A stretch of DNA of 63,971 nucleotides, counting the filler, from Sluysia triapertura (Eukaryota): the NCBI GenBank assembly GCA_046118255.1. It is 4 parts of 4 records of this genome, joined end to end, with 100 filler letters (N's around TTAATTAATTAA, not from the genome) between each part and the next. Parts side by side here need not be neighbours in the genome. Positions count along the whole stretch, not along the records: positions 12,340 to 40,265 come from JBJNIA010011095.1; 3 more parts are not named here. One strand, 5' to 3'. Shown one piece after another: positions 16,003 through 54,423 of this stretch (positions are counted from its first letter, which is position 1; every line of letters starts with the position of its first letter). A model generated the notes under the pieces. The model did no database searches. It had not been told where the DNA came from and was given only the letters and a program-made list of their open reading frames with translations. The position numbers and the translations under genes were made by a program.

Positions 16003-16850
16003 TGTTTCTTAATGTAAAGGAAGAATTTAACTTACAGATACTCGAAAATAATATCAAAATGATTGATTTCAAATCGTGTAAATCAGGATATTTTTTCAGC
16101 CGGATCACAAATAATACCAAAATCAAATTATCTTCTTTGTTGGAATATTTCGGAAACAATTAAAAAAACGAAACAAAAGTCATTCTTGAATTCGCAGGAA
16201 CCAAATGATCAAATCGTGTAAGTCAATTTATTTTCTTCACAGGAACAAAATGATTTATCAACAATTCGCTGTCTTTTTGCAATTAATTGAATAGTATATC
16301 AGCTAAAAAAAGTTGTCGAATTAATACTAACTAATATTACTATATGACTATTCTTAAGTCAACATAAGTAATTATCTATTTATTTAGGTAACAAAATATG
16401 GAATTCTCATGGTATTTATTTTAAATTATTTATTTTTTAGATAATAGCATAACAGGATATCTGGTAACTTATTATGTTTAACTGATAATTTTATTTTTTT
16501 AGATTACCAAATGTCAAGCTCTCGGGTTATGTGTTTTATATTTATTTATTATTATAATTTATAATAATAATAATTATTTTTTAGATTCCATATTTTGTGA
16601 TCATCTATATTATGTGATCCTGACAAATAATTAGAAAGATCAGATTCCGTTTTCTACTATTTTATTGTCGAATTATTTTTCAGAGTATTGTTTAGAAATA
16701 ATGTGTTTAAAACTATTTCAATGTCTCTTTATTAAATTATCCATACTAATGTAGTTATATTTTTATTTTAATTCACATTATTTTTAATTTAATATTATTT
16801 TTTTTACTGAAATTGTTTAAATATTATTTAATGATAAAATAAACTGCGAT

Positions 16851-18888
16851 ATGTTAGATATATGTAAATTAACAAAAAATGAAGTTAGTCGTTATGGTCG
16901 TCAAATCATAGTGGGAGATTTTGGTGTTAACAGTAAATGGTTTTATTTCGTTACTAAATATCTCATTTTTTTATTAGCTCAATATAATTTACGAGATGCC
17001 ACTATATTAGTCATTGGTTTTAATGATATTACGAAATGTGCTGTTATTTATTTAGCAGCTGCTGGAATTGGAAAAATTAAATTGTTTTATAATCACGCAG
17101 AAATTTATGAATTGAAGTGCGATATAACAAAATTGAATTCTGCAGTACAAGTTGAATTTATTCAAGAATTGTCTAAAAAGGATAAATTTGATGCTATATT
17201 ATTGAATGAAGACTGTAAAGACATAGCATGTAAAGGTCCTATTTTTCAATCGGAAATAGATGGCTCGGTTTGCCGTTTAAGGTTACTTTTAGAAAGTGAT
17301 AATTTGTCGGATTGTAATGCTAAATATGAGTCTAAATGTGTTGGGTGTTCCGATTTAATGGGTTTGTTTCAAGCTACTGAAGTTATAAAATATATTGGTA
17401 AATTAGGTAAAGTAAAGCAAACATTTACATTTGACATAAATGAACATAAATTTACAAAAAAAATGGATTCTAAAAATCACTTAAAAGAAAAAAAGCTAAA
17501 TTCCGTTTTAATTGTTGGTTGTGGAGGTCTTGGATGTCCAGCCGCACATACAATTGCTAATTCTGGTTGTTTTTCAACAATAGGTTTAGTAGATAATGAT
17601 GTTGTTGAAGAATCTAATTTGCACAGACAAGTTTATCACAACGAAGAACGAATTGGAATGCTAAAAACCGAATCTTTGAAATGGCACATTGGAAAGTAAT
17701 GTATTTAGAATAATTAGTAATTATTTATTTAGAATAAATTCTAATTTAAATGTAGAAACTTTTAATGCTCGATTACGACGTGATAATGCAATAGATATTA
17801 TTAAAAAGTAAGCTTATATTTCTGTCACGATATAAATATTAGGTATGATGTCATATTAGATTGTACTGATAATATTCCCACGAGTTATCTGGTTAGCGAT
17901 TGTTGTGTATTGCTGCAGAAACCTCTTGTTAAGGGAAATGCACTTAAATTAGCTGGTCATTTAGCAGTTTATTGTTACCGAGGTAGTCCTTGTTATCGAT
18001 GTATTATTCCAACACCGCCGGATGTTGTGGGTAATTGTGCTGATAATGGAGTACTTGGATCAGTGCCCGGTGTCATGGGAACTTTGCAGGCAATTGAAGC
18101 TATCAAAATTGTATCCGGTAAAGAATGTATGGCTGGTCAATTCCTTTTATAATGCTTTATCGAGTGATATTCGAGTTTTTAAACTCGGTAATCGGAAATC
18201 CAATTGTTTGGCTTGCGGGAGTAACTTAGATAATCGTATAAATATGAATTTAATGGATTATCGGGAATTTTGTGGCATGCCTGATGATGATAATGCTTGC
18301 AAATCAATTCGATTGTTGGAACCTCATGAACGAATTTCCGTTGAGGTTAGTTGCTTTATTTAATGCTTTATAATTATAATTATTGGTTGAAATGTTTAGA
18401 TAAAAAATTTAAAGTATGTTAAAGAAATGATATTAGGCCGAGTAAAATTTATTGACTTTGAATATTCTCCGTGTGTATCGTTTAAAGCCTTCCTGAAAAG
18501 AATGAATGTTATTGTTATAAACATGTTTGGTGCAGTTTAGAATTACGTTTCTTTGTGTGGTCACATAAAATTTTATTGTTTAACTGTACATGAAAAGGAC
18601 CTTTTCATCGTATCATATTTGATAAGGTGTTATGTGTAGTGTATGTCTCTTCCACATGATGTTTGTCCAAAGTCTCGTTATGGATGACTTGTATCTAAAC
18701 AAGAAATGAGCCTCTTATTGTCATTTTAAATTCTTATTGTTTTCCGATTTTGAAACATTTCACTGATATATTTATTTTATTTTTAATTCAGGAATATCAG
18801 CAAGTAGTCATCAGTGGTCAGATACATGTCTTGTTAGATGTGCGTCCAAAAGAACAGCGCGATATTTGCCGAATTAAAAATTGTTTAG
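16851..18888 (+). CDS. MOCS3: MOCS3/UBA4-like adenylyltransferase-sulfurtransferase with an extra degenerate N-terminal ThiF domain. Exons 16851-16932, 16978-17695, 17733-17807, 17843-18345, 18792-18888; 3' end not found; frameshift at ~18148
   Basis: Motifs [83 protein letters not shown] and rhodanese start [12 protein letters not shown] introns restore the frame at each junction. Confidence 0.9.
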
Positions 18889-21699
18889 GTTATATTTTAT
18901 TCGAATTTGATAATACATTTGATTTTTCCAAAAACTGTTATTCTAAGTCATGTCTTAACTGATGCGATTTTGAAGCTGCAATTTCGATTTAGAAAAAACG
19001 AATGTTTTCACTACATTCCAACAACCTCAATGAGAATTGAACGTTTTTAATAGTTTTGGTTATCCAGCCAAACTGGATAATAAAATTTTATAGAGTGCTT
19101 TAATAATCTAAGAACATGGGCGTGCGCATTACTTTTTATAATCATTAATAAACATGTGGAATCTGTAACTCCTTCGATGAAAATTGGTCACTTAGTATTA
19201 TATAATCGAGAAAACACAGCAATAAGCACAAAGAGATGTGTTATAAAAATAAACTCGATGGTCGAATTAGAGAGTGATGTTTAATAAATGAAACAAAGTA
19301 TTGTATTGCTGGTAATTTAGTGCTGGGTTTTACAACGTTTAGGATAAAATAGAGAATTTGAACTTAGTCTAGAATCTGATTTAGAAACACCCTTAGTATG
19401 AGATTCCTTTACATTTATTGTCATAAGTAAGGTATTCGAAATTTAAAAATAAGTTAAATAATTGAATAAAAATTAATTTAGTTTACTACACAATCAAAAT
19501 AACTTGAATACAAAACTTTTAGTAAAATAGGTTAAGTATAGATCGACATGTTCGAAATGGATCAAATCTAATTGCCATGAAATTCAAATATTTATAAGAA
19601 CGAGTAGAATGTCGATGGTGTGAATTAGAATAACCACCTAGTCTTACCAAATCGTTGAAATTAATATACATCAATCAGGTTTACTAATGGCTAATGAACT
19701 AGTTGTAGTTATATTTTGCTGCATGATTAGTTTTAACCCTAATAATATTGAATTATTAAAACTTGGCTTTGTAAGCCAGGTGTGTTTTAATTATAAGAGA
19801 CCCAACAGAATATCATCCTACTAATATTTATCATTTCTATAATATGTAAAAATAAGAAAGTTCATTTAGCCAGATATCAAGAGAAGCACCACAAATAAGT
19901 ATAAGTATAAATATAAATACAAGATTAAAGCCAGTACATTTTCCGATGTTGAAATTGTATATATTAACATGACTGCGTTAAAAGAAGTACGCGGTTTTAC
20001 AAGTACGTGCTTTGAAAAAAATTGAATTAAATAAATTTAACAATTAATCACTATATATATTCACTCTAAACAATATAAAATAACTTAATTAATTCAACAC
20101 AAAAAATATAAAAATATATAATAGCAATAATTAGTTTAACAGGTACTTAAAAATTTAAGATGATTTTAACCTAGCGTTTTTACGGTCTAGGAAAGTTTAT
20201 AAAGTTTAAGTGTATTTTATTTTCAGCAAGTTGATATCAGAAATTAAACTTATTTCAAATAATTCTTAGTTATAAATTGTCAATATGACTACAAATCCCT
20301 CTTCTATTTATATGGTTTTTTCTGCTACCACATTAACTATTTACAACTGTCTATTAATTACTTCAAATAAACAAAACTTACAATTTTCTTTATCTAATAA
20401 TATAAAACAAATTTATAATTTTCTTTAATTATTTAAAAATTTTAATTAAAAAGTTATAATATATTTTATATATAATAATTTACATTTAAATATTTAATTT
20501 ATACATTTAATATTTTATTTAAAATTTTATTTTAAAAATTTATTAATATTTTATTTAATATAATAACTATAAAGATTTAAAAAAGTAAACAATAAATTAA
20601 GTAATAAAATTAATTACAGAAATATTTTTACAAATAATAAACAAAAAATTATAAGTAATAAATCAACTCAACATGATAAATAAAGTCATATTCATACTTG
20701 CTCAAATCTGAAAACAGGTAGAGTTTGAAGTGTATTTTGTCCCAAAATCAATATTATTATCGTGGAATCTTGTATTATAGTTATTTTAACAGTTGGCTAT
20801 ATTACAAATTTTATTAATCACAAAACAAAGTGTTTGAAACCTAAGCAATTCACGAACAAAAATGTGCAGATCAATAAATGACTTCCAGAATACTAATTTC
20901 AATATTTTTCAATGATAATAAAATGAGGTGACAAATTTTTTACTTGATAAACTCCATAAACGCCACCATTTATAAAATTTCATTTGCACATCTAAATTAA
21001 AGACTGATTTTTATCTATGATAATTCAAATTGTTTTTACAAAGTATCATAGAATTATCATACACTATGGAAATTCAATTTTATTCAGTAAAAAATGAAAA
21101 TTCTGCAAACAGCAGAAAAAAGCTACATTATAAAACAACATCAAACATTGAATCTTAAATTTTGCTATAGACCATTATTCCTAAGAAAAATTAAATTATA
21201 AATAAATTATATAAAACTTAAGTGATTTGAAAAAAATAATGCACTTGATAAAAAATATTGGACCCTCTACGATTAATTATCGTTTATAACAAAAATCATT
21301 ACATGATTTATATTGGTAGTTTTGAGAGTGCTATCAGTTAGTTTTATTGTATTCACTAGTAATAGATAATAAGGAATAACACGTGAGCCTCAAAATATCC
21401 ATTCAGTATATTTTACTTTACCTTGACTGTAGTCTGTAACAATTTTTAATAATAATGTTAACAATTTTAATAATAATAATATTAATCGAATTAATAATAA
21501 TATACCAACCTGGAAGACGATGACGACAATATTAAATTTTCCAAAAAATTCTTTAAAATTATAATTTCCGATAATTAATATTTAATTCAGTATTTTTGAA
21601 ATTCTAAACTTAAATTAAATATTTAAATATTCAAATTATAAATGTCTAAACATTTAAATTTACATTAATATTTAGACTTTAACCACTAATGTTTAATTA

Positions 21700-29523: not shown

Positions 29524-30807
29524 TTACATTAGAAATTTACTAACTGGTGTTACCGATCTAGATTCAGAAAAGTCAGTTCCTGACATGTCATTCAAATCAC
29601 ATAATTTGTTAGAAGCATCACTCCCTCTACCTTTGCCAGCATCATCACTATTAATATCGTTATACTTTACATGAACACCCTGTTCGGTAGGAAATAAAAC
29701 CGCAAACTGAGATCGTTCTTTAACAATATATTCTTCATAATTTATTGACGAAGTAACAGAACTTGTTGCACAATTATCGTCCTCTTCGTCTATTTGAGTC
29801 ATAGAATGAGTATCATAAGCATCAAATGACATTCCACCAACTTGAGTTGATTGAGTCTGTTGTTGAGATGTACTAACTGAATTAATACTTTCTGGCCCAT
29901 ATAAAGGTGAATTCATTTCGTCATTCTGTGGTTTACATCGAAAACAATTAATAAAACCTTTTCTAAAAGACTTAAAAAACATTAAAGTTATCAAAAATGG
30001 AATTAATGAAAAATAACAACGCAAAATATAGAAATGAAACTGATATTCTGGCAATAACTTATTAGCATATAATGTAATCAAATATGGTGAAAACGCACCG
30101 ATCCATAAACAATGTAAAATGAAAGAATAAACACCAAGACGAATTTCTTTTTTTAAAAATTTTGGTTTACCTGCTCCAGTTATATTCAATAAATTCCGTT
30201 GTTGCACTATTAATTTGAGCACAGTTACGTAAATAGAAAATGAAATTAAACAAGGTGCCAATAATAACATTATAAATAAACTCAAAGAATACCCAATATA
30301 TTCATTGAAACTAGGAACACAAGTAAAAGTACTATTCAGATACTTTGAAGGAATTTTTAATATTAGTGGTATACAAAAACAAGCTGATATCAACCATATG
30401 ATAACTAATGATAAAATAATAATTTTTGTTTGACTAAATAAACTTCTAGATTTCTTATTAATCACTGCCATGATAGCGGCCAAACGATCAATTGATAATA
30501 ACAACAATGTTACTGATAAACAAATCGTTGTAAAAGTGATCACAAAAGACTGTGAAAGACAAATTGGATCATTTATACTAACATATTCATTCTTTGAAGC
30601 CCATATTAAATTGATTATTTGTACAAAACCAGAATCAATTAAGATCATAAACAAAAAATTAATCAATAACTTAAAATGAGACTGTTTTCTTAATTTAATA
30701 TTGTAAAATAATATTCCTAAATGAATACTGTTTAGTAATAAAGATAAGAAAACATCACAAACAGTTAAACCAATAAATAGATATTCTTGACTTGTTAGAT
30801 TTGTATT
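29524..30807 (-). CDS. Orphan rhodopsin-class (class A) GPCR, main coding exon; upstream start exon not identified
   Basis: Seven hydrophobic segments once the frame is extended to the ttttag acceptor at 30807 (TM1 ...LSLLLNSIHLGILF, then KLRK). Also C3.25, SIDRL (DRY-like), TM4 IWLIS...P, ECL2 Cys, TM5 Pro, TM6 LW...SPY and helix-8 FRKGF. Confidence 0.85.
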   Translation of the reverse strand, partial: NTNLTSQEYLFIGLTVCDVFLSLLLNSIHLGILFYNIKLRKQSHFKLLINFLFMILIDSGFVQIINLIWASKNEYVSINDPICLSQSFVITFTTICLSVTLLLLSIDRLAAIMAVINKKSRSLFSQTKIIILSLVIIWLISACFCIPLILKIPSKYLNSTFTCVPSFNEYIGYSLSLFIMLLLAPCLISFSIYVTVLKLIVQQRNLLNITGAGKPKFLKKEIRLGVYSFILHCLWIGAFSPYLITLYANKLLPEYQFHFYILRCYFSLIPFLITLMFFKSFRKGFINCFRCKPQNDEMNSPLYGPESINSVSTSQQQTQSTQVGGMSFDAYDTHSMTQIDEEDDNCATSSVTSSINYEEYIVKERSQFAVLFPTEQGVHVKYNDINSDDAGKGRGSDASNKLCDLNDMSGTDFSESRSVTPVSKFLM

Positions 30808-31639: not shown

Positions 31640-33526
31640 AAACGATTAATATATAATCGATATTCGCAATTTAATGAAAAGTTACGAAGAACATATTAAA
31701 ATATCTTTCAAAAATTTTACGTATATTTTACGACAATTGAAATCGCTTAATTAAAATTAACTAACGATTATTTAAAGATTTTGAATAAATTCTCGGCAAC
31801 AATAGAACACGAATATAAACGATTAGTAATTATGAATTAGAAACGGAAAAAGGAAACAGAGCATTGAATGTGAAAACATCTAGAACCTAATAAACTGCTA
31901 AATAAACTGCTAACTTTAGAATCTTAGTAAAACCTTTAAACATAAAATAAGATTAAGTCTAAAAAATAAGAAAAATTACGTTTTTGTGAATAACGTTTGA
32001 ATGAGGAAGGCTATGTAGAATTCGAAACTGTATATGGATTTGTTTTAAAAAGACCTTTTGATGACCGATTCTTGCAAGGAAAGCCTTAATATTGAGCAAA
32101 GTCAAATTTTTATTAATTTTTAATTATGCAATGTTGAATTTTTTATACTTAGAATGATGAAAACATAATGAATTAAATATGATATGATGTTTTTAGAGTG
32201 GCTTGTTTGAGAATATGAAATTTAAATATTTTTAATTAGAAAATTGGGTGTGAAAAATCTAAAATCAATTAAATTCTTAAAAGTGAAATTAAATTCATTA
32301 TTTTTATGTATGTTAACAATATTGTGGTTGTTATTTTAATGTGAAAAGTGATTTAAATAAAAACAGATTAAGTATAATACGTTTTGTAATTAATAATAAT
32401 AGCAAATTAATATCGCTTAATCTATTTAACTAAACCTCAATAATTAATGACTAAATTCAATCTAAAATTACCACAATTTTCTTTATTTCGATGATGTTAT
32501 TTGCTCAACAGAAAGATTAAAATTAAATAAAAAACAACAATTCAATAATTTAATGATTACAAAAAAATCAATTACTGTTATAAGTATTTACTAAACAACA
32601 ATAAAATCACTAAAACTACAGGATTAACAATAACCTTTATAATAGTATCAATGACATGACAGTCTGAATGAAGAAACCAGGAGTGATGCAACAAATACTA
32701 AAAATATCGATATCGAGAAAGTGTAAAATAGTAATATTGCTTAAATATTTTCAGATCATCTTAACCTAATTTGGCAGGGATCCTCCCAAAAATCAAATTT
32801 ATCAATTTCTTATAAAAAGATGAAAATAACAACAATATTATTAAAATATTTCAAAGTAACTTTATTTTATTATATTATTGAATTATTGTTATTAATTTAA
32901 ATTGGGTTGAATAAACACCATTGCTAAAATAACAAAATTTGTGATAATGTATGCTTGATCTAGTGAGTATTGAAATTATTGAAATTCTATTTAAGTAAAT
33001 TGAACTTATATTGATTTACTGTTAATAATAAAATCAAAGACGCAACAATTACATAGATAAAAAAGAAGTTAAATTTGGAACAATAAATCCAGAAAAGATT
33101 CAACAATCACAACAACGCTTGTACACAATAAAATTATAATACAGGATTGAAATAAAAGGATTCTCGACCTTGTTAACTCAGTAGTTCTAATACACTTTGG
33201 AAAATAATTATTTCCATAATTTTCGGCATAAATCTATAGAGAAAACACTAATCTCCTATATATACTAACACAGACATTAGGTTAATGTTTTATAAGTTTA
33301 CATCGTTTTAAATAGGCTTAAAATACTGCTGTATTTTGTATATAATTGATCAGCAGTATTTTAAATAGCTGGATAAAATCTGCATCAAATAAGCCTCAAT
33401 ATTAATAATAATTATTAGGAATAAACCTTTTAAATTCTAAAACCAAACAAATTGGTTTCTTGGTTTGTGCTATAATCCTTTTATAATTATGATTGAAATA
33501 TTTATTAATTTGTTGATTAATTTGAG

Positions 33527-34085
33527 TTGACATTACATTTATTTAAAACGCCATCAATGAAAAGAGCAGATGGTGTAGGAAATAAAACCAGCTTGGGATC
33601 TATTGAACAAGTTTTACATGATGAGATCATACATCTCGGAATACGAAAGATGAAAATTACTCGAGGATTTATTCATGACAAGATAATTGCCTTAGGAAAA
33701 GAATTAAATATTGAGCTAAAGGCTACTGGAAACTGGGAAACCAGATTCATGAAAAGAAACGGTCTCAGTCTTAGATGTACCAGCAATTTGGCCACTTTAA
33801 CAGACACTGTGATTTGTTTGTACGTGATGTGTGATGTAGGTTTCATAAAAGATTTGAATTAGCGCATTGTGCAATTAAATATTTAAAAAACTTTGATGAT
33901 GGACGAAGGAGCAGTTATGTGGGATTCTATAACAAATACTGTAGACTCAATTAGCGAACATCACGTCATTATGAAATCAACTGGATTTAGTTCAATTCGA
34001 GTTACAGCAATAATTTCTGTTTGGGCAGATGGTAAAAAGGCAATTCAATTGGTAATACATAAAGGCAAGCATGAAGGCATCACTT
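33527..34085 (+). mobile_element. pogo-family transposase fragment (CENP-B-type HTH plus start of DDE), truncated
   Basis: EQVLHDEI...ITRGFI...KATGNWETRFMKRNGLSLR, then MDEGAVMWD...VIMKSTG...RVTAIISVWADGKK...VIHKGK. Confidence 0.85.
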
Positions 34086-34157
34086 CTGAACAAAATGAGA
34101 CGAAGATCCAAACTTTACTAAACTTATATCATATTGATTTGATTCAAACTACGAAGA

Positions 34158-36235
34158 TTGAAAGGGAAAAAGAATCAAAAAACGGAAGATCCAACAAATA
34201 TAATGACACAATTATTCGGCAATAACGGTATCATATTAAATAATGCAATACCAAGGATAGGCAATTCGACAAATAATATGCTGTTTATCATAATACTATT
34301 AGCAATGTTCGGCATAAATAGAACTAATGCAATAAAGGCATTTGACTGTAGCCAGTAACAAATAGGCAGAAAAATTTCATTAATGGACACAGAAGATTGT
34401 CTTGAATAAAGGCCAAATAAAATACAGGTAAAAGATACTAAAATAATGAATGTTTACCAAGAAGGTAATCTAATAACGACTATAATAAAGGAGTGTTAAC
34501 GATCAGTTGCAATCTGGTATTGCGGTCACCGTAGCTATTCATCAATAATAGAATTATCTAATGTACTTAAACCATTTAAGATACTACCTAAACAATGCAG
34601 AAATGCGTTTGAGACCGGCTGTATAAGTCTAACAAAGGGAGAAAAATTGAAAATATGAAATAATGAAAAGATAATTTATAGTATAAGAACCGCCGGAAAT
34701 GTACTAAGAGATGGGGCATGTGAACAAGGAACGATAGAATATGAAGGATAAATCTATCACAATGTTGTCGTACAGGAGACATACGTAGTTAGTTTGAAAT
34801 CATTTAACAAGAGTTTTGATATAGAAAAAAGTACGATGATGTCGCGATCATATTGCAGAAGTGATGAAACCAATTGCGACACTGGAGAATCAATACTAAT
34901 TTTCGAATTTCAATGTCCACTAATATTTCTTAAACAAATAAAATTTAATGTAATATCAGGATTTTTGTATCAAGATAAAGACGAATACCCATTAGAAGAA
35001 ATAAATAAAAATTCTGACCATATACAAAGAAAAAGATTAGATGAAGTCGAAACATCGGCAATACCAATGGCCAGTAGGGAAGAAGATGGTTTAATTTTTA
35101 TTTCAAAGGAACAATAATCCGCTGTGGAAAAGAAATAACAACCAAGGAATTTATCTCTCAGAGAAAATAATTCAAAAAGCTAAGAAAGGCGTTGATACTA
35201 AAAATATAAAATTAAATGCCTATTTTAACAACAAAATCGATTTCTATTACCATTTAGGTTTGATTTCGCTAGAAAAAATTTATCAAATTATGGTTATTCG
35301 GGATTGTCAATTAAACAAAGAAATTTTACGCACAAAATTGGCAATAGCTACTAAAAATCCAGACTTAGTCGCACCATTAGAAGAAGGAGTTTTCGGTCGA
35401 CTAGTGGGAGAAGTATTATACACGTACAGATGTAAAAAGATGGAAGTACAGTTAAAGTCAACTACCGAATGCATAAATGAATTACCTATATAATACGGTG
35501 AAACAGAAACACACCTCGAACCAGTAACCAGAGTAATCTTTCAAAATAATAAAGTCAAACCAAAATTAATGCACTCCTCTAATGTCATGGCAGCGGAATA
35601 TAGAATCGATGATAATTTATGGATATCCTTGCCTCACAGAAGCCAGGTAAAACTCTAGAAATAATAGGATTAACTGAATTAAAGGGAAAACTAAAATTTT
35701 TAGCTACAAAAAACATACCAAATTCTGGAATTTATACGAATGACGATATGCAAGCAGCCTGGCGGAAGGTACTATTCCCAATAAAAAGGTTAAAAATATA
35801 ACTGAAATTGTAGATAAAGCAACGATTTACTATTGGGACCCGATCATTTTAAAAGAGCTGCACAAGATACACTAAAACAGATATGGGGAAAAATTTTAAT
35901 ATTAGGACAAGCATTTTCTGGATTAATAGGAATATATAATAATTAAGGTAATAGCATTGATAATTTCTCAAGCTTTTTCAGTAGTCGGAATTTATAAAAT
36001 CTCAGAATTTACGTGGAAATTAATAATTGGACGTTTTCCATTCCTTGCAGAATACCTCTTGCACCACCATGAAAATGCTCAAATAAATGTATTAAGAAAA
36101 GAAAGACAATATACAGAAGAAGGACAACAATTACAAACATTGCAAAACAGTGATAATGAGGAAATAGTAGAAAATCAAAAATGCATTGAAATTCAGGAAA
36201 ACATAGAAACAACTAAAGAGAATAAGAAAAGATGA
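34158..36235 (+). pseudogene. Decayed envelope glycoprotein, class III fusion type (chuvirus G / herpes gB-like), part of the Ty3/Gypsy element
   Basis: Read through stops: signal peptide MLFIIILLAMFGINRTNA, AFDC, ISLMDTEDC, WYCGHRSYSS, QCRNAFETG, GACEQG, NVVVQ, YFNNKIDFYY, RDCQLNKEIL, GEVLYTYRC..MEV...ECINELPI, LEPVTRVI, GIYTNDD and C-terminal hydrophobic segments. Family assigned by motif recognition, not a database search. Confidence 0.85.
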
Positions 36236-39200
36236 CTATATCCTATTACTCCAACATCATCACCCAATGTAATCTATATGATATGCTCTAATAACAATTA
36301 TAATGGATCAAAGAGACCAAGAATAAATGCTAGAAAAAGGGTAGAATAAACAGCACTAAGTGATACAGGAACAGTAGCCTCCTTAATCAACGAAAACGTC
36401 TTAAATAAAGATGAATTAAAAAATTTAACTAATCATACCTCTCGTCTTTCAGGAGTTACAGGCGATGCAATTAATATAACTGGGGTAATGCGAATTAGGA
36501 CAAAATAGATTAGAAATTAAATTAAGAGTTATGAAAAATGTCCAGAAGAAATGATAGTGAGAATAGACATTTTGTCTCAGTTAAAAAGAGTAACATTAGA
36601 TTTCGACCAAGTAAAATTAATGGATAGTGGATCAAAAAGAATTATTGATGATGATGACGTATACGTAGATGAACCAATCTGGTTAGTAAAAAGAAGTGAA
36701 TATATTGCAGGTCAAGACAAACAGTCTATTAACCGGAAATATCATGTTTATTACATCAGAGATTAATCAAGAGAAGTTAGATATAGGAATAGCTAGTGCA
36801 GTGTAAAATAATTGCGAAGAGAAAATACCCGTTAGGATTATAAACTACACAAATGACAATAAATGGCTTTATATAGGGACAAAATTAGGAAAAATAGTTA
36901 AATATACAATACCAGCACATATTAACTTAATTTCGGAAAATAAAAGTAAAAAACGATAAAAAGTAACATAAAATTACAACATGAGATACAAGACGAAGAC
37001 TATGGCGAAATATAAATTATTAATAAGAATTTAACTAGGAATCAGACAGATCAGTTATATAGTATCAAGAGAAATAGCGAGAAATAAGTGCGACATTGGA
37101 GATTCTGTAATAATAAAACACTAGATAGCGCTAATAATAGATAAAGTAATCCGAAAAAGCCATACAGAGTACCGATATGTAATCAAAAGGAGATGCAAGA
37201 ACAAATAGATACTATGAAAAAATCCGGAGTGATAAGACCAAGCATCTCACCTTTCTCATCTCCAGTTTTATTAGTTAAGAAAAAAGATAGTACAATGAGA
37301 TTTTGTATAGATTTTAGAGAATTAAACAAGGTACCAAGAAAAGACATATTTTCTTTACCAAGAATAGATGAAATGTTGGACGAATTAGGAAACTCCACAA
37401 ACTTTACAACTGTTGATCTACAAAGCGGTTATTGGCAAATCGAAATCGCTGAAAAAGATAAACATAAAACCGCACCTGCAACTTTCCAAAGGTGCATGAA
37501 TTTCGTACTATCAGGATGTAAAATGTTATGGTATACAAAGATTTCGAACCACTTATAAAAGATATTGACAATATTCTAAATAGACTGGAAATAGCTAAGT
37601 TGAAAATTAAACCAACAAAATGCGTTTGGGCTGAGAAAAAAGTCGAGTTTTTAGGACACATAATGTCAAAAGATGGAATAAAGCCCAATTCGAGAAACAT
37701 AGAAAAATTAGTAAAATTTCCACAACCCGATAATGTAAAAAAGATTCAATGTTTTTTAGGATTAGCTAATTACTAGAGAAGATTTGTTAAAAATTTTGCT
37801 AAGATAGCACAACCACTCAGGAAGTTAACACGAAAAAATGTCGAATTTAAGTGGACTAATGAACAAACTAAAGCGTTTAAGGAATTGAAAGAACGACTAA
37901 CTACGGCACCAATACTAATTTTTCCAGATATTAATAAACCATTTATATTGACTACTGGTGTTATTGATGTAATCTTAGGACAGAAAGACAAAAACAATTT
38001 AGAAGCAATAATTGCGTACGCTAGTCGACGACTAAATAAGGCCGAGATGAATTATTCGACCACTAAAAGAGAATGTTTGGCTATTGTACACGCATACAAA
38101 TTATTTAGGCATTATTTATTAGGACAGATAGTTTATTTATATACTGATATCAAGCGGCTGACCTATTTGTATAATCACAAGGAGGAGATCAGCAGATTAA
38201 ACAGATGGTTTAATAAATTAGCAGAGTATAATAATGGTGCAGATTGTATGTCACGCTTAACTAATGTAGATGATAAAGGAAATATTAATTATATACAAAT
38301 AATGTCAATATCAGAGAAGATAAAGATACCGCTTATATTATAGATTCATTAGCGAAGGAAACCTTAATTGAAAGTCAAGCAATCACTGATGGAATGCTTA
38401 GATTTAGAAATTCAAAAGATGAATGGAAAACAGTTGTCCCTAAATCATTAGTAACACAAATATTAATACAATTTCATGATGGACATCTGTCTAAGAGAAA
38501 AACACTATCCAGAATAAAAGACAAGTATTATTGGGAAGATATGGAAGATGATATTACAAATTGTTGTAAAAATTGTTCAATATACTACAGGAGAAAAAAT
38601 ACGGGAACAGGGTCAAATGTACCATTAAAACCTATGCCTGTACCAATGCCACCAATGGAATTCACATAAATGGACATAATGGGACCACTATCGGAAACCA
38701 TTAATGGAAATAAATATATTATTGTGTTTGCTGATTATCTAACAAAGGCAGAAACTGTAGCACAAATACTTGTGAAGAAAATAATTTATAGATATGGTAC
38801 ACCAAGGAAATTATTGACGGATCAAGGTAAAAATTTTACAAGCGATATAATTAAATCAGTAGCAAAAATATTTAACATTCTTAGAATCTAAATATTACCT
38901 TATCATCCACATACAGATTGATTAGTTGAACAATTCAATCGGACACGAATAAATATGTTACAATCATATATTAATGATAGACAATCCTACTGGCACTTAT
39001 ATTGCACCATGTTTATTCTCTTATAGAAGTTTGGTACATCCAGCTACGAATTTCACACCATTTTATTTGATGTATGGACGACATTCTAATATGCCTGTAG
39101 ACTTAGAATGGATACCACCAATGACATAATACGTGGAAACACCAGAGTACGTGACAGTAATGCATGGAAGCGTGCTGGCTTACAAATAAAGTTTTCACAA

Positions 39201-39430
39201 GAAACATATAAAGATACATATGATAAAAAAGCTAAAGAGCACAATTTTCAAATCGGTAACAAAGTACTTATTGAATATCATTTAGCTAAACCTGGACAAT
39301 CACCAAAATTACATAAGCCATTTAAGGGACCATATAAAGTGATAAAAATTACTGATACTAATTTATTTGTTGAAAATGGATTCAAAAACATTCATAATAC
39401 ATGCAAAAGTATAAATTGCACCAAATAATG
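36236..39430 (+). mobile_element. Decayed Ty3/Gypsy pol: protease, dUTPase-like spacer, RT, RNase H, integrase
   Basis: Protease ALSDTG (36362). RT IRPSISPFSSPVLLVKKKD..MRFCIDFRELN, DLQSGYWQI, PATFQR, FLGH, FLGLANY. RNase H AYASRRLNKAEMNYSTTKRECLAIV. Integrase HD-GH...C, MDIMGPL, LTDQGKNF, GPY. RT-RH-IN order is the Gypsy order. Many stops, frameshifts and deletions. Confidence 0.95.
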
Positions 39431-39543
39431 AATATAAGTTAAAAAATAGGACATTTACCAAATCACTATTAAAAGCTAAACCGAAAATTAAAGATCGTGA
39501 TAAACCACCATCAATACAATCATTAATTGATAAACAAGTAATA

Positions 39544-39870
39544 TTGATGTTTAATGTATCAACTGGAATACGAACGCATATTTTTCAAAATGTGTATTTT
39601 AATGGTAGATGGATCCGAGCTGTTATAGATACCAGGGCTACCACGTCTGTAATACATTATAATTTTTTAACTACATGGGAACTTGTATTTATAGATCCAC
39701 CACAAACAATAATGTTCATCGAGCACCAATAAATATGAATGGAATAATACATGCACATTTAGATATATTAGACAAACGAGTAGATGAGTATATTTAGGTT
39801 TGAGAAGAATTTCCTTTCGATTTAATAATTGGTTTAGATATACTTGACAAATTAGATGACATAGTTATAC
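39544..39870 (+). pseudogene. Second retropepsin-like aspartic protease downstream of integrase
   Basis: VYFNGRWIRAVIDTRATTSVI (DTG to DTR by one base, 39628-39636); after a frameshift, FPFDLIIGLDIL at 39819. Confidence 0.75.
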
Positions 39871-40025
39871 ATAGTAAATACGGTCTTATGAATTTTCACA
39901 TGGTGCACAATTACTAATTCCACATGTTGTTGTTCCATTTCTTCATAATGACATCACTCTGATATATCCAAACACCTGATCTTGAATCTAATAATCCAGC
40001 ATCGCCACCTGGCCGATTATCTGAT

Positions 40026-40265
40026 TTGTTATGGGGAAAGCCATTCATTGACTCATCAGTGTCATCAGTAACAAGTGAATTTTCAGAGTCATCATCGGGA
40101 ATTGGTTCTGTTAACACAGTAATGTTCACTTTTTCTAGTAAAAATAATTATAAGGCTAAGAAATCATTCTGGACATCATTATTAATATTAATGATTGTAT
40201 TTTTAACTTTGATAGGTACAGTTAAGTCAATAGATATTGAGGAAGAATATAGAAAGTTATATTCA
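40026..40265 (+). CDS. Ser-rich linker then signal-peptide-like segment, truncated by the assembly gap
   Basis: KAKKSFWTSLLILMIVFLTLIGTVKS-IDIEEEY has a basic n-region, hydrophobic h-region and small-residue cleavage site. It is in the same frame as the C-terminal half of the second protease. Confidence 0.5.
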
Positions 40266-40365
40266 NNNNNNNNNNNNNNNNNNNNNNNNNNNNNNNNNNN
40301 NNNNNNNNNTTAATTAATTAANNNNNNNNNNNNNNNNNNNNNNNNNNNNNNNNNNNNNNNNNNNN

Positions 40366-41587: not shown

Positions 41588-43626
41588 CACCAACACCTCA
41601 CTTTGCGTTGGGGTTACGTTCCAGAAAAATACGACGCAAAGTGAATTAAGATTTTCTATAGCAAACCATGTAAAGATCGAAGATAGGTTCCAGGTTTACG
41701 AAAATACTACTTTTAAAAAAAGAAAACTGAACAAAGTGAACACTTAAAAAACAAAAATAATATAAAATTTTATTACATACATACAAAAAAAAACAAAAAA
41801 ACGTATTCAATTAAAACAAAATAAACTATTCAATTAATTATGAAAAACAAACTTACAATTAATAACTGTCTGATGAGTCCATAGTGGCTGTTGTCGTAAG
41901 TCGGCTTTCTTTCACAAAAAATTGATCCAATGTTTGCTGAACAGCTTTTTTTTCAACGTAAAATAAATTTCCTCGTAGTAATTGATATTCACAGCTACCT
42001 CCTGCACACTTTAAAACTCCTTCCACTGTCAGGATCGTTTTTTAAAAATCTCCATAGCTTCGTCAATCAAACACATCGCTTTGGAAATTTGTTTGGAGGT
42101 TAAATTTTGTTCTTCCGATATTTCTATTAGCAATATCATCTTCATTAGCAAACCGCAATTCCATGGTATGCTTATCTTGTCCATCAGTCTCACTTAAAAG
42201 AAGTTTAAATGTCCGTCGAAGGTAATAACTTTTAAAAGTCGATATTACTTCCTGATCCATCGGCTGAATAACTGGTATCGTATTAGGCGGCAAAAATACA
42301 AATTTCACGTTTTCTGGCAACTCATCAACATAAACTGGTGGCCAGGAACATTGTCTACTAGGACCAATGCCTTGAAGTTTAAGTTTCCCTTGTTGCAATA
42401 AGTTTTAATTTCTGGAATAGCACAAGTTGAAACCCAGTTTTGAAATAATGATGTTGTCATCCATGCTTTTTTGTTTGCTCGCCAGTTGACAGATTCTTTG
42501 AACCTTTCATAGCTCTTGGATTTTCTGATTGATAAATGAGAAATAGTTTATATTTGAAATCACCATTTACATTACCACCAAGAAGAAGAGTCAGTCTATC
42601 CTTGCTAGCTTTAAATCCTGGCGCAGATTTTTCTGTTTTAGATATGAAAGTTCTGTTAGGTAGACGTTTCCAAAATAACCCAGTCTCGTCAACACTAAAG
42701 ACGATTCGGATCATAGCCACCTTCATGAATTAATGCTTTTAACTCTGTCGGGTAGCGTTCTGCAGCAGTTATATTAGCGCTAGCTGCTTCGCCTTTAAGA
42801 GCAATGGTGTGCAGATTTGCTCAAACCTTGAATCTCTCAAACCAGCCCTGACTAGCTTCAAATGTTTCATTATTGTCTGCATTACTGCCACTAGCATTAT
42901 CGTTGGATGCTCCTTACTTTTTATGTCATCAAATAAGCTTTTTTCTTTCGTCTGAATTACCATTTTTCTTAATGGTATTCTCTGCGCAACTTGATTTTCA
43001 ATCCAAATAGAAAGCAAGGACTCCATTTTCATCACCAAAGAACTCCTTGTACGGATCATCGTTTTAGCATCTATTGATGTTGCAGATTTTGCAGCCTCTC
43101 TTATTTTATCCCCATCTCGATCTCTAATAGTTCTCACAGTTGTTGCAGCCAGACCAACAACCTTTGCTATCTCCGCAGCCTTTTCTCCCTTATCAAATCG
43201 TCGCAGAATATCTAATTTATCTAATTTCCACTCATTTGGCTAAAAAAATTACAAATGTATGTATGCCAATAAATAAATTGGAAAAATATTTACCTCTTCT
43301 GTAACCAGAAACAACCCGTAAACATTTATAAAAAGTTATTATTCTCTTTTAAAAAAAACACAACACACTACATAATTGAAACTGAAAACAACTGAAACAA
43401 AGTGAAAATAAAATTGCGTTGATTTTCAGTTAGAAATGGAATCCCCGAGTTCTGATGGCATGGCACAATTAGAAACAAAAGTAGTGCCATCTTTTAGAAA
43501 AAAGAAAATTTCAAAAATAATTAAAACAATGCATCCTCGAAAATCTAACAACGTACAGCAAAAATTAGTATTAATTAAGCAGCGACGCAACTTCGAAAAA
43601 ATGCAAAACGAAACGAGGTATTGGTG
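41588..43626 (-). mobile_element. Tigger-like (pogo family) DNA transposon, near full length, decayed
   Basis: TIRs CACCAACACCTC and reverse complement CACCAATACCTC, with TA on the right. HTH (KLDILRRFDKGEK, MESLLSIWIE), DETGLFWKRLPNRTFISK...PGFKASKDRLTLLLGGN, and VFLPPNT..IQPMDQEVISTFKSYYLRRTF. Confidence 0.92.
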
Positions 43627-46393: not shown

Positions 46394-47373
46394 TGTGAGG
46401 GTTTTTTCTTAACCTACTTGCAAAATATCTGAAGAGTTGGTCCGCCTAATATATAGGATTTATGCCACTATTGGAGACGTATTATTAGGATTTTTATAAT
46501 TTATACTTAAGAAAACTTTTGCTTATGTCTTACTCTAACAATTAATTATTGCGTTATAATTATAGATTTTATATTTACACAACTCTCTTTAAGGTGTTAC
46601 TTTAAAAACAAATTTGATTTAAATTTATAAATTACACAACCCTTTTGGTAAGGTATTGTTTGAAAACAATGATTTATTTTACGTAAAATAAAATAATAAT
46701 CCTACAAAAATCTGTTAAAAAATCGTACACAGAAATTTAATATTATAATAATGATATACAATTTAATAATTCAACCTTAGTTGATTACATATAAGTTTAA
46801 TTTAAAGATTACCCAATCCTCTTTAAGGTGTTTGTACGAAAATATTAAAATAATTTAAGTAGATTTTAGTTTTCTTGTATACAGTGAATACGAAAAACTT
46901 ATAAAGAAAAAATTACTTAGGATGCATGGATCTTCTAAAAATTTGATGGTACCTTCGTCGAGTTCCTAAATTTTATTTTTATTCTAATCCTTCTAATTAT
47001 ATTATATTGTTGTTCTGATTCCTACAAAATTTTAAAGAATTTATATAGTAATTTACTTTACGCCATTTTAATTTAAATTTTTCTTAAATAAATATAAAAA
47101 TTATCAAAAATAATTACCTAAATTAGTTATTTAAACAAAATATTTTCTTTCTAATAAATTAAACAAAAGGTTTTTTGGTATTTAATTAATTTTATTTTTA
47201 ATTTAAATTTTAAAGTAATAATTTCTTTAATTTTAATATTTGTTTTTTAAAATTATTAATTTCTTTTTAATTTTCTTATTTTTACTAATTTATTTAATAA
47301 TATTTGTATAATAATAATAATATTTACAAGATAAATTTTACAGTAGATAAAATGTAAAATTTACAATCCAACA
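46394..47373. mobile_element. Solo-LTR-like repeat, family B, copy 2
   Basis: TGT...ACA termini with ATTT on both sides (possible 4-bp TSD). Colinear with 14738-15838. Degenerate hairpins at ~46579, ~46636 and ~46811. Confidence 0.7.
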
Positions 47374-48583: not shown

Positions 48584-48894
48584 GTGCATCGGTCAAAGTG
48601 TCCTTGAAAAAGACAAATACCTTTACAAAATGTATTTCAACAATTGAAACGAAAATATTTTCCTTTTTTGCTATTAAAAAAGGTAGTTTAAATTTATGTA
48701 AATTTAATAATTTAATATAAGAATGTTACATGCTTGTTTACTTAGGGAAGCTTTTGTTGATTTTTCCGCTAATTTTCAAGGCATTTTAATTTGAAATAAA
48801 AGCATAGATTAATGATTTACAAAAATGAAAAAAGTAATTATTTCATAATTTAACTAAATTTTAATACTACATTTAAATAATTTTGAAAACTTAC

Positions 48895-49759
48895 CGGGAT
48901 AAGTCTTAGGCACCATATCACCATATCCGACCGTTGTCATGGTACAAATAGCCCACCATAAACCATTTGGTATTGATGTGAAATGATTAGAATCATTCTT
49001 TGTAAATCTTTCTGCATAATAAATCAATGCTGCAAATACAGCAATGAAAACAATTAGAAAGAACACCAATAAAGAAAGTTCTTTGGCACTGGCTTTAAAA
49101 GTTAAAATTAGAATTTTTAAACCGGAAATGTGTCTCGTTAATTTAAACAAACGCATTATGCGCAAAATGGATAAAAATTCAATGAAATTTGATTTGTCTA
49201 TTTTTAAATACATCAGCGATACATCAATGTAAAACGATATTAACGCTAAAAAATCGATAATATTTAATGAATTAATAAAAAATCTCATTCGTGAATAAGC
49301 AACCAATAAACGTAGAAATAGTTCAATTGAAAACCATATATTACATAAACATTCCGTATAAAAGAAAATTATGTGTGGAAGAGGATACGAGCTTGCTTCT
49401 AGTGACCAAGAAGAATTATCTGAACCGACAGAAATATTGTATAATAATGGTATTGTGTAACTAGGATATGTTTTTAGACAAAATGAAAATATCGATAATA
49501 AAATAATAAAAATGCTTATTCCAGATACAACTTTGGCAAAATTTGATGAATAAGGTTCTTCCATTATTGACCAAAGCTTTGGTTTCCAGGACTGCCACCA
49601 CGTCAATTCGTTCATTTCGTATTCGTCTTCTAAATCGAATTTTTTGTACAATTCAACTTCATTTGTTCTTTCAGATTCAATATCCATTTTTTCTAGAATT
49701 TGTAGTGTATCTTGAGTGCTTCTGTGTGCAGTGTATGTCATCCAGCAACACGGTTCTAC
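48895..49759 (-). CDS. Shaw: Shaw/Kv3 potassium channel, exon from the end of T1 through S1-S5 and the pore
   Basis: tttcag acceptor then VEPCCWMTYTAHR, EEPYSS, S4 ILRIMRLFKLTRH, GLWWAICTMTTVGYGDMVPKTY; gtaag donor. Confidence 0.96.
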
Positions 49760-52442
49760 CTGAAATTATAAAGTAAAAAAGGACCTCCTAATATATCAAT
49801 GGAAAGGTAAATTTATTATCCTTTTTTACACTTTTATAGTTGGAACTCTTGCTTCGTAGGTTCTATCATGAATCTACAAAGATGATATATCTTACAAGCA
49901 ACAAATAAATGGAACCTTTTCTCGTATATTCATTTCTTCTCTTTTTACATATATCACTCCACCTTGTTCATTATCTACCTATTCTTAACTTTAATAATAC
50001 AATATTTCTACTTAAAAGATTAGAATGAAAGTCTTGTCCGATAGAAAATAATATTTATTTAACTAATAAAGACAACATGTAAATTGAAAATAAAAACAAA
50101 ACATCAATCGTCTGTAAATAACTAAAATATTTCAATGTTTTATGAAGAAATGTTTAGTTTAAATGCATTATTAAATCCTTTTTTAAATGTTTAATTTCTA
50201 TCTTATACTTAAATAATTGTTTCAGATAGATATATCATTTAAAAAATATTTTGTGGTATATGATGGAGTTTAAGTGAAGCAACTTGAAGAAGCTGGAATG
50301 AATGCGTCAGCAATTGAGAAGAAGGTATTGTGAGAATTGCAAAACGAAGAGAAAAGTGAGCGATCATTGGTTAAAGATGATGTTTTGTTTATGTCTCAAT
50401 TTAAAGGTTTTCTTTATTGATTAAATAAATATTATTTTCTATCGGACACGACTTTCGTTCCAATCCTATGTTTAACATTTGCTTTTTGAACAAGAGAAGA
50501 AATGCATTGTTTGTATTGTTTGTCATACATATAAGAATGACGACGACTGAAGGTAAAAGTTATCCGTCATACATGTATGAATGTGTAAAGAAATTTTGTG
50601 CAAAAATAATTGGAAAATTTAAGTGAACCAATCACAAACAAATAAACTAAATAATTGAACATTTGTATTTAAATATAATTTATTAAGACATCAAAAACAT
50701 AATTTCTGATTATTTAAATTTCGAATTATTACAGCGTTTTTATAAGTTGAAATAACAATTTTTCTAAGTATTATTATTATTATTTTAAGTGCTTGGATAT
50801 CTAATGGAAAAGAAATTTTCCAAGTCATTTCATTATTATACGTTAAATGTAAATTAAATTAAATCAAGTAGTTTTATTGTTTTTATTTTTTATATTAATC
50901 TTTTTTCGTTATAAAGTGATGCAAGTACATAAATTAATTTTTGAATTTTTTATTTTTTTTGTTAATAATTTTGTTTGCAAGCTTTAAGATTTGGTCAAAG
51001 TATACTTTTTGTAAAGTGTAGTCAAATGAAGTAACGTCTTGATGACAGCAATCTTATTGCTGATTTTCTGATGGAATTTCGCAAAATAAGACTTTGATAC
51101 TTTTCAAATAGCGCATTGCAGATTCGGGGTCACATTGATCGAATTTAAAGTTGGCATTTATTTCATAACAATTCGGTATAAGTTCAAATGCAAGACCCTA
51201 TCGAAGTTTCACAAACGAAAATCATGACCATCTTTCTCTATACATTCACCTTCAACGTCACAAAATGCTTTTTCATCCAGATTATTTGTCCAATCACGAT
51301 GCAGTAATATGCAAAGCCTAAAGTTCATGATTTTGTAATCAGACATCAAAAAATAGAAAAAATAAATTACCTTTCATAATAGTTACATTGTTATGAAACA
51401 TAACACACTGTGAGTCACCAGTGAACATGATATGATCATAATGAACACACACATGCCACAAAAATATACAAAAAAGCATCGTTTGTAATGGTGAATATGT
51501 ATAGAATTATTTGTTACGTAAAAATGCGGTTCTAAGTGTGTATGTGTTAGTGTGTAAGTATTTCCATCAAATTAACATATAGAAATAGTGTAAAATAATA
51601 TAAAATACACATACATTTCTTAAATTTTATCGTCAAAATCTGATAAACTAAAAAAATAGCTTTTTTCATTGTTTATGTATGCATTTATGATGATTATGTT
51701 TTGAGTTTGAATTCAGTATATAGCATATTCTTCATTTCGATATCATCAAAATCATTGTCATAAATGTTTTTAATAAAATAGTGTTTGTAGACGGCATTTT
51801 GGTTCTTGACTGACCAGTATCTGTTGCCACTTATATTTGAAAGAACATTGTGGTCCACTTCACAATGTACAAATTTATTATTAATAGGCTCAAATAGATA
51901 ATGTTACAATTTCTTTATTAATATTATTTTTACTATACTTTAAGCACAATTATCGTACATTACACAATCATAAATTATACAATCAAATCTCCAATCTTTG
52001 TCATTTAAAATTACAATTTTGGAATGCACACCTTTTCTAGATCAAATAATGCTTGTTACACTCATTTTGCTAATCAGTTCGTAACAAATCATATTAATAC
52101 AAGGATCATTTCTTATTGCAAACGTTACTATCTTTATCGTAGAAATAATTCGTAGTTTGTGTATTCCCTTTACGATCTTCAGTAAATGAAATTTTCATGA
52201 ATATAATGATGCTCTATCAGTTGTTCTATTTGCATATATATACATATATATACAAAAATACTATTATCCAAATTACTAATACCAGATACAAATTAATGCT
52301 CACTCTACTCTATAAAACAAATTCAATATTAACCAATCAGAACTATCTATACTAATTCAAATTAAGTCGCGCCAGTAAACATGGTAACTCCACACTCTCC
52401 CGTGAGAAATGGAACTGGTTTAGCACGAATATGTCTATCCAC

Positions 52443-53196: not shown

Positions 53197-54351
53197 NNNN
53201 NNNNNNNNNNNNNNNNNNNNNNNNNNNNNNNNNNNNNNNNTTAATTAATTAANNNNNNNNNNNNNNNNNNNNNNNNNNNNNNNNNNNNNNNNNNNNCATT
53301 TATATATTATTAATTCAAACTAATTGAAAATAAAATTTTACAAAACCTTTGGAAAAGGCGAATTAATTGTATCTTTTTCAACTTGGCAATAAGACACAAA
53401 AAGAATATGGAAAAATTAATAAAATTAAAGAAATAATAAAAACGGAATTTTGTTCTTTATTTCAAGACAAAGTTTAATTATTTAATATATCTAGAAAGTG
53501 CGATAACAAAATGGTGATTCCGATAAAAGACGGATCGATAGGATTTCTGCTAGAAAAGGTAAGTTACGCGTAGAGGAGCCTTAAATTTTAATATGGAACT
53601 AATCAATTAATGCTTATTAATAAAATAGGAAAACTAAAATGATTATACAATGTTTAATAATAAAATAATAGCTAAGAATAAAATAATATTCTTAATAACA
53701 AAATATCATTTTAATGAGATTTTAAGACCACCATTACAATATTCGTATAAATAATAAGATTTTGGGTCAGATTTTATCCCATCTTAAAAAATGGTTTAAA
53801 AAACTTATCAAAAGTAAGCTTCAGTATGCATAGAAAACATTATACTCATTATATTTTATATTTTATATAGATATCAAATGTAATGATTATTCTGATTTAT
53901 CATCAACTGACAACTATGACGAATAATATGAAAAATTCATTCCAGAACACTTTCACTATTGGACTTATTGTAATTCATTCACTCAGAAATTGTTTCCATT
54001 TGAGATAAATAAACAAGTTGATATATTTTGAGTACTGTTTCGATCAGAAATTGATGGAAATTATTACCAAACAAACAAATATTTATCACGAACTAAATAA
54101 ATCAAAAAGGCAGGACAGAAGTTCGTGGAAGTGTTTTACTTGGTGAAATGTATACGTTTTTGCAACATTTACTTTTCATGAAAAATGCGATAAATGTATT
54201 TATTGGTCAAGAGATCCATTTCAGTCAAAACCATACAATGGAAAAGACAAACCACACGCTCAGGAAGATAAAAGATGATATTGTTGGGGTAAAAAGGCCT
54301 AAAAGTGCCATTTGGTAAAATTGTATATATTAAAAATGAAATTGTTAGAAG

Positions 54352-54423
54352 GGGCTGATAGCTCAGTGGTAGAGCATTCGAACTGCGCTGCGATGGTCCC
54401 GGGTTCGATCCCCGGTCAGTCCA
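54352..54423 (+). tRNA. tRNA-like element (Ala/Cys-like pseudo-tRNA or SINE head); nominal anticodon TGC
   Basis: Acceptor stem GGGCTGA/TCAGTCC, D arm GCTC-AGTGGTA-GAGC, T arm CCGGG-TTCGATC-CCCGG, then TTTT. The anticodon stem TTCGA/TGCGA has two mismatches. Confidence 0.7.

Follow-up and report, generated by a model that had tools for sequence, protein, structure and literature searches.

Several Ty3/gypsy retrotransposons are known in which a viral-type fusion glycoprotein is encoded upstream of pol. In the planarian element Burro (GYPSM1), the text of Arkhipova & Yushenova 2019 (PMC6431247) already describes an env in frame between gag and pol, which is homologous to mononegavirus fusion glycoproteins and lies between gag and the protease in one polyprotein. 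Burro proper (GYPSM1, Burro1-4) has an internal region of up to 25 kb and an open reading frame (ORF) of about 5,000 amino acids (aa), with MATH, BIR, Smc, BCL2 and ankyrin domains (PMC6431247, text). GAG-ENV-POL Ty3/gypsy elements with an env of the herpes simplex virus (HSV) glycoprotein B (gB) type are described from Nematoda, Bryozoa and Platyhelminthes in the main text of Chary & Hayashi 2026 (PMC13524379), where the non-canonical endogenous retroviruses of nematodes (Sacco et al. 2022), with a flipped env/pol order, are also cited. The present work concerns a locus on the plus strand of a 63,971 nt stretch of Sluysia triapertura DNA (GCA_046118255.1), hereafter the window, which consists of four joined parts; positions 12,340-40,265 come from JBJNIA010011095.1. 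With a probability of roughly 0.9, the locus is an inactive, 5'-truncated copy of a multi-copy Ty3/gypsy long terminal repeat (LTR) retrotransposon of the planarian env-first kind (Burro/GYPSM1-related, Schmidtea C1a errantivirus group), the intact relatives of which code for gag, a class III fusogen, one or more proteases, a reverse transcriptase (RT), an RNase H and an integrase within a single ORF. The product is likely threaded through the endoplasmic reticulum (ER) and cut by signal peptidase and by the element's own protease.

The Platyhelminthes C1a elements Smed_errantivirus_1-6 resemble the window in their Ty3/gypsy pol, in a gB-type env upstream of pol and in being multi-copy (1-215 copies; PMC13524379, main text). 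Compared by eye, the window has VYQE, EC, CG, C..AF.T, G.C..G and C.TG.S (env domain I-II) in common with the six Schmidtea C1a env rows, whereas the window motifs were not shared, by eye, by the nematode and bryozoan env rows seen in the supplement. The host is accordingly likely to be a flatworm, and probably a planarian. The C1a elements are treated in that paper as three ORFs in an unusual order, unlike the single ORF of the window relatives, and the words 'polyprotein', 'fused' and 'fibronectin' do not occur in its main text. Burro resembles the window and its relatives in the env-in-frame order and the protease-RT spacer, and some relatives carry ankyrin, weak Bcl-2 or weak ubiquitin-like domains. 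The window differs from Burro in lacking everything 5' of env and in its compact env-protease-RT span. Mosquito BEL/Pao elements with a chuvirus glycoprotein (Dezordi et al., in the part available) have the same glycoprotein class as the window (PF24664), but the window env is located 5' of a pol with gypsy-type RT_RNaseH, Integrase_H2C2 and GPY modules, which does not belong to the Pao type. No Pao-type Pfam family was found on the pol pieces at E up to 0.1. An initial annotation of the locus had taken it for an undescribed lineage, and gB/chuvirus-type env for mainly a BEL/Pao trait. Neither claim is supported, as such Ty3/gypsy elements are already in print in the texts of PMC6431247 and PMC13524379. 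The headline architecture of the locus is therefore a rediscovery, and a dead copy matters little by itself. What novelty there is may lie in a predicted post-integrase membrane protein with an Fn3-like fold and in repeated proteases, which are seen in relatives and are half-visible in the window.

Architecture of the env-pol element

Pfam scanning of the element was performed on single-frame read-throughs with X at stops, and motifs were placed by translation of the forward frames of 33400-40260. Pfam families were observed in the order PF24664, RVT_1, RT_RNaseH_2, RT_RNaseH, Integrase_H2C2 and rve. PF24664 (Monjiviricetes_fusion) matched at 34203-35165 (E 7.8e-23, profile 3-207) and again at 35095-35655 (E 3.3e-24, profile 296-445). 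The env motifs AFDC (34338), YCGH (34518), GEVLY (35407) and CINELP (35470) and the pol motifs LYP (36236), SDTG (36359), DLQSG of RT (37415) and HDGH of integrase (38475) were found where the initial annotation had placed them. The set of Pfam profiles on the window pol was of gypsy type. Protease, RT, RNase H and integrase follow one another as in Ty3/gypsy elements, and H2C2 and GPY/F modules are present. Aspartyl protease 1 gave no match in Pfam, but was recognised by a profile built from 29 protease domains of relatives. The spacer between protease and RT corresponds to one termed dUTPase-like in Burro (PMC6431247, text). Coordinates of all parts are collected in Table 1.

It had been proposed that the env tail continues in frame, through isolated stops, into the DTG protease and on into RT-RNase H-integrase. 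This was borne out. Over 35930-36763, which takes in the second half of the anchor, the tail and the protease, this frame contains 4 stops among its 278 codons, two of them before DTG, versus 38 and 30 in the other frames, and the tail/linker is collinear in a single frame with residues 945-1217 of the relative P0006 (tblastn). A single frame from env to pol was correct for the second half of the anchor, the tail and the protease, but not for env itself, whose frame changes no fewer than four times from 35114 to 35937 (tblastn). The last of these (35933-35937) borders the hydrophobic peak of the anchor at 35936-35992. The 159 codons from anchor to DTG leave no room for a gag, an LTR or another insert; the absence of gag and LTR there had been claimed. 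Similar distances, 131-225 codons, were found in nine of the ten relatives with an anchor match (391 in the tenth); the anchor pattern was unmatched in two of the 12 relatives.

The copy is dead. It carries frameshifts and stops, gag and LTRs are absent, and the RT active-site motif is deleted. Alignment to P0006 placed a 20-codon deletion near 37470 and the loss of YxDD at a frameshift at 37510-37522. No gag or CCHC zinc-knuckle match was obtained anywhere in the window. Because the RT motif is lost and gag is absent, the copy cannot be infectious; the earlier suggestion of spread between cells or between parasite and host therefore fails for this copy, and nothing points to a parasite.

The env is assigned to class III by the profile matches on the window and by the modelled fold of a relative, P0004, computed from a 64-row alignment. 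The P0004 model had a predicted local distance difference test score (pLDDT) of 82.8. Among viral models, chuvirus-like glycoproteins were the top Foldseek matches (Tacheng tick virus 4 G, E 5.3e-45), and among solved structures the top match was herpesvirus gB (HSV-1 gB, E 5.8e-14, template modelling (TM) score about 0.33). TM-scores of the fold matches overall were just 0.3-0.6. These results agree with the class III, gB/chuvirus-type env upstream of pol that had been annotated.

Table 1. Parts of the element in the window (positions along the window; iE, independent E-value)
Feature	Position	Strand	Evidence
Pre-env polyprotein linker remnant	34140..34277	+	Same frame as env start; P0004 aligns from 34176
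Env internal signal-peptide-like segment, predicted	34278..34337	+	MLFIII stretch at 34278
Class III (gB/chuvirus-type) env ectodomain, with stops and frameshifts	34338..35883	+	PF24664; relatives 31-48% identical
Env membrane-proximal helix and transmembrane anchor	35884..36070	+	WGKIL 35884; frameshift near 35935
Cytoplasmic tail/linker	36071..36346	+	Shares the frame of anchor and protease; single stop at 36233
Aspartyl protease 1	36347..36604	+	DTG 36362; stops 36347, 36506, 36518; profile iE 7.2e-13
Protease-RT spacer	36720..37150	+	tblastn 23-28% identity to P0006, P0108, P0236
RT, inactive copy	37154..37850	+	RVT_1 E 1.4e-08 and 0.0027
Connection and RNase H	37852..38229	+	PF17919 E 8.5e-29; PF17917 E 2.5e-27
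Integrase, interrupted by stops and frameshifts (H2C2, core, GPY module)	38436..39428	+	PF17921 E 3e-16; rve E 1.1e-4; GPYK 39327
Aspartyl protease 2, post-integrase	39586..39869	+	Two frames; catalytic motif altered; profile iE 1.6e-7, 2.5e-6
Second signal-peptide-like segment and first residues of predicted second membrane protein	40158..40265	+	Hydrophobic peak 40164-40238

Relatives, copy number and the env-pol junction

A HMMER search for env relatives against 1.84 billion representatives gave 110 matches at E <= 0.001; a word-index search of the N-terminal half of env against longer proteins gave none among 1349 candidates. Twenty relatives, picked from the best and the longest of the 110, were scanned with Pfam. 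Env was followed by RT in five (P0006, P0007, P0022, P0039, P0108) and by a protease in four, 11 contained env only, and env after integrase was found in none of the 20. The window was collinear with the single-ORF proteins P0006 (residues 375-2167) and P0007 (126-2335), and in P0006, P0007, P0114 and P0236 the place of the signal-like segment of env with respect to the A[YF]DC start matches that in the window. P0114 (4844 aa) contains env, seven protease stretches, ankyrin, C2H2 fingers, RT, RNase H and integrase. An extra hydrophobic segment was observed at its residues 2088-2115, between env and RT. The deposited record gives P0006 as a hypothetical protein from a metagenome bin of Flavobacteriaceae; it is almost certainly animal retroelement DNA in that bin.

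Locus scanning of metagenome contigs with P0007 gave five loci. Only L001 is a full relative, with a 3703-codon ORF of two CCHC knuckles, env, two proteases, RT, RNase H and integrase; L002-L005 match P0007 in the integrase only, at 22-27% identity. Scans of genome contigs with P0006, and of viral contigs with P0236 and with P0002, gave no match, and no stretch of the env alignments was conserved enough for locus scanning. The proposed (gag)-env-pol order in one polyprotein is thus seen in intact relatives, including L001, P0006, P0007 and P0114. A continuous gag-env-pro-pol ORF is reportedly also present in the non-canonical nematode elements. Burro-type extra domains were found as ankyrin in P0114 (E 5.5e-6), a weak Bcl-2 match in P0004 (E 0.00096) and a weak ubiquitin-like match in L001 (E 0.018); an Atlas search with residues 1-100 of P0004, the possible Bcl-2 region, gave no usable match. 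Two accessory ORFs follow the L001 polyprotein at 11375-13473 on the plus strand. One of them has a weak RNase_T (DEDD exonuclease) match (E 0.0011), which recalls rotifer LTR elements, where a DEDDy exonuclease and small transmembrane ORFs are present as separate ORF3s (PMC5408684, in part).

RT-RNase H trees were calculated with FastTree from 71 sequences (the core set and every second other match) and with IQ-TREE from 41 sequences (every fourth other match), both midpoint-rooted and with unnamed database hits only. The best RT-RNase H matches, the env-first proteins and the window formed one clade. The window was placed in this env-first clade with a Shimodaira-Hasegawa (SH) support of 0.969 in the larger tree and an ultrafast bootstrap of 96 in the smaller. 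Since the closest relatives of env and of RT belong to the same clade, env and pol travel together and the junction was inherited.

Copy number was approached through the contigs of one run, X1, aligned to 32000-40260 at >=80% identity. X1 is possibly the source sample and is not independent. A total of 25,766 contigs, mostly less than 95% alike, were obtained; their summed depth marks repeat blocks and is not a copy number. Depth was 16.5 at 33104-33379 and 210-253 at 33380-33931, climbed from about 250 to more than 100,000 across 33932-34483, and stayed at 44,000-198,000 over 34208-40003, save for 15,825 in the linker bin 36140-36415. In the last bin, 40004-40260, it was 9,753. Env, pol and the post-integrase region are thus marked as one multi-copy block, which starts near 34150-34200. 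Directly upstream of env, a decayed plus-strand frame at 33554-34120 is located in the place of gag; its depth of 210-253 is that of a separate, lower-copy repeat. By its motifs this frame resembles a pogo/Tigger transposase, and Pfam, PDB and pairwise tests of it gave no match. Further upstream, 32000-32551 is a repeat of very high depth (325,000-647,000) with diverged copies at 9676-9780 and 21578-21680. No partner of this repeat, at most a possible LTR of the element, was found downstream of the element.

Several observations weigh against the assignment of the locus to this env-first family. The window has no LTR pair, the copy being truncated at its 5' end and stopped at its 3' end by an N stretch. 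The initial annotation had called for gag and an LTR upstream of a single ORF; the gag-env-pol ORF was found in L001, but no LTR pair was found within the L001 contig. An intact copy from the source genome was not seen, the X1 contigs being short. The fold was tested on P0004, which is 33% identical to the window env, in place of the window env. As the trees contain no named Burro or Schmidtea sequences, the family placement rests on the by-eye motifs and the shared architecture. Only a short linker and a single protease separate env from RT in the window, which is also more compact than the Burro ORFs of 4,873-5,140 aa. The membrane topology is a prediction from hydropathy. Finally, none of the eight X1 pieces listed bridges anchor and protease, although one covers 36277-36700.

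The missing bridge, together with the depth dip in the linker bin and the heavy decay and 5' truncation of the copy, would also suit a local chimera, in which the env of the 3' end of an upstream gag-pol-env element was joined to another pol by deletion or nesting. Such an origin is very improbable. Intact single-ORF relatives share the order and a similar spacing of anchor and protease, and the nearest relatives of env and RT belong to the same clade. Just two stops occur from anchor to DTG, and even the linker bin is about 1000 times as deep as the neighbouring low-depth bin. The chimera is thus largely refuted, and the claim that the junction is no chance fusion was upheld by the spacing in the relatives, the shared RT clade and the lack of env after integrase in the scanned relatives.

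The region downstream of the integrase

The initial annotation had ended the element at 39430. This end was too early. Aspartyl protease 2, which also matches PF13975 weakly (E 0.011-0.027), and a signal-like segment follow the integrase, and the inherited env-pol element runs at least to the N stretch at 40266. The signal-like segment alone is visible of a predicted second membrane protein, the rest of which is lost at the N stretch 40266-40365; a Fn3 profile gave no match on the window beyond it.

The clade comprises 12 proteins, nine of which have a visible integrase GPY/F end. In six of the nine (P0006, P0007, P0114, P0236, P0117, P0118) the same ORF continues with two hydrophobic segments flanking a CxxLxxxxxY motif, and this extension is predicted to be a signal peptide, an Fn3-like motif and a membrane anchor. 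These six are not independent, as P0117 and P0118 are 44% identical and P0007 and P0114 are sisters, and represent about four branches. In P0119 and P0039 hydrophobic segments follow the integrase but the motif is lacking, and P0115 ends after the integrase. Among 60 other pol proteins examined, a GPY/F end was visible in 35, and none of these had a post-integrase hydrophobic segment. In P0007, the protease and the signal segment start 92 and 257 residues after GPY; in the window the distances are about 100 and about 277 codons.

The ectodomain of P0117, folded with P0118, was modelled as two beta sandwiches (pLDDT 70). P0117 and P0004, the env relative modelled above, may be parts of one element, their contigs being of equal length (20,084). 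All Foldseek rows listed were Fn3-containing proteins (best E 1.8e-6). VIA-align gave a Z of 9.1 for a tandem Fn3 over 171 residues, with a root-mean-square deviation (rmsd) of 9.7, and Z values of 8.5-8.8 for single domains at rmsd 2-3, other Ig-like folds scoring close behind Fn3. Atlas matched fn3 clusters at 0.91, with 167 features in common, which is suggestive on its own scale. From the model, the post-integrase protein of P0117 would consist of a signal peptide, an Fn3 fold and a transmembrane anchor within the pol ORF. The L001 ectodomain is homologous to that of P0117 (E 1e-11), and those of P0006, P0007 and P0114 match it weakly (E 0.01-0.05 at best). A search of the P0117 post-integrase region against shorter proteins gave none of 2154. 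A small signal-ectodomain-anchor module was also observed before the protease of P0118 (residues 45-240), with weak similarity to its own post-integrase ectodomain (E 0.003-0.004).

It may be asked whether protease 2 and the signal-like segment belong to a different element, adjacent or nested, with the window element ending at 39428. In this copy integrase and protease 2 are separated by a stop and a frame change, the ectodomain needed to prove homology falls in the N stretch, depth is down to 9,753 in the last bin, and P0006, P0117, P0118 and L001 have no post-integrase protease. This explanation is nevertheless unlikely. P0007 and P0114 carry one or more proteases and then a signal peptide after the integrase in one ORF, P0007 at nearly equal distances, and depth stays at 44,000-81,000 across 39176-40003. 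Moreover, a diverged copy among the listed X1 pieces (59 differences in 428 bases) bridges the integrase end to protease 2, at 39285-39705.

Hydropathy follows the pattern signal-anchor-(pol)-signal-anchor. The following steps are proposed from general membrane-protein biology. Synthesis would begin with gag, in the cytosol. Env would then be directed into the ER lumen by an internal signal sequence, signal peptidase freeing its N-terminus, and the single strong env anchor would stop transfer, so that protease-RT-RNase H-integrase would be cytosolic and tethered to the env tail. A second signal sequence, placed after the integrase or, in some members, after a further protease, would begin a second type I membrane protein, whose two Fn3-like domains in the folded relative P0117 would be lumenal. 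One ORF would yield equal amounts of gag, env, pol and second protein, pol would be held at the budding membrane until its release by the protease, and enveloped particles could pass out of somatic cells into stem or germ cells.

The second membrane protein may act as the partner of the fusogen in attachment. In the main text of PMC13524379, the mechanism of entry of gB-carrying elements is stated to be unknown, since HSV requires gD, gH and gL. A second Fn3-like membrane protein, co-translated with the fusogen in most env-first relatives, is a concrete candidate for this missing gB partner. It can be studied in planarians, as Burro transcripts are detectable and RNA interference works there; BURRO1 is expressed after piwi knock-down (PMC8532177, in part). 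At its fullest, this reading makes the elements two-glycoprotein retroviruses, with a gB-type fusogen before pol and an Fn3 receptor-binding partner after integrase (a counterpart of gD/gH-gL), extra aspartyl proteases (up to seven, in P0114) as internal scissors, and a polyprotein that crosses the ER membrane four times, flavivirus-like. As a whole this is a tentative and rather doubtful proposal.

There is nearly an even chance that the second membrane protein is instead a host-modulating accessory, such as a decoy receptor or superinfection block, and no particle component; its ectodomain may, in this family, even be something other than Fn3. The ectodomains are very divergent (most pairs E >0.01), the hydrophobic segments of P0119 and P0039 lack the Fn3-like motif, Fn3 domains occur typically in receptors and in adhesion proteins, and Burro carries many host-like passengers (Bcl-2, BIR, ankyrin, ubiquitin-like; PMC6431247, text). 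Conversely, the shared ORF makes the same timing, amount and membrane likely for this protein, env and gag, and it is kept in four or more of the clade's branches and missing from 35 of 35 other pol proteins. A post-integrase membrane protein or Fn3 domain in LTR retrotransposons was not found in the literature searched, although figures, Repbase, Grohme 2018 and Sacco 2022 may mention one, and, these sources aside, neither were repeated or tandem proteases in one retroelement polyprotein. The text of PMC6431247, its Fig. 2A aside, names neither extra proteases nor a membrane protein after the integrase, and 'fibronectin' and 'Fn3' do not occur in it.

Other features of the window

A bacterial promoter scan of the window gave nothing informative. 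A pogo/Tigger-type transposase remnant was identified on the minus strand at 42063-43239, with CENP-B_N, HTH_Tnp_Tc5 (weak) and DDE_1 (E 1.8e-10) matches. An uninterrupted 427-codon frame at 29524-30807, also on the minus strand, encodes a rhodopsin-family G protein-coupled receptor (7tm_1, E 6.4e-9). Two host gene pieces were observed, one with ThiF-family (E1-like) domains (16821-18152, plus strand) and one with a voltage-gated ion-channel exon (48854-49765, minus strand). A tRNA-like sequence without a proper anticodon is located at 54352-54423 on the plus strand. The N stretches at 12240-12339, 40266-40365 and 53197-53296 are built alike, each from two N runs with a 12-base linker between them that has stops in all frames. 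Short hairpin-like repeat clusters (D11, D13) at 14925-15342, 46566-46621 and 61820-62161 are possibly the ends of non-autonomous DNA transposons.

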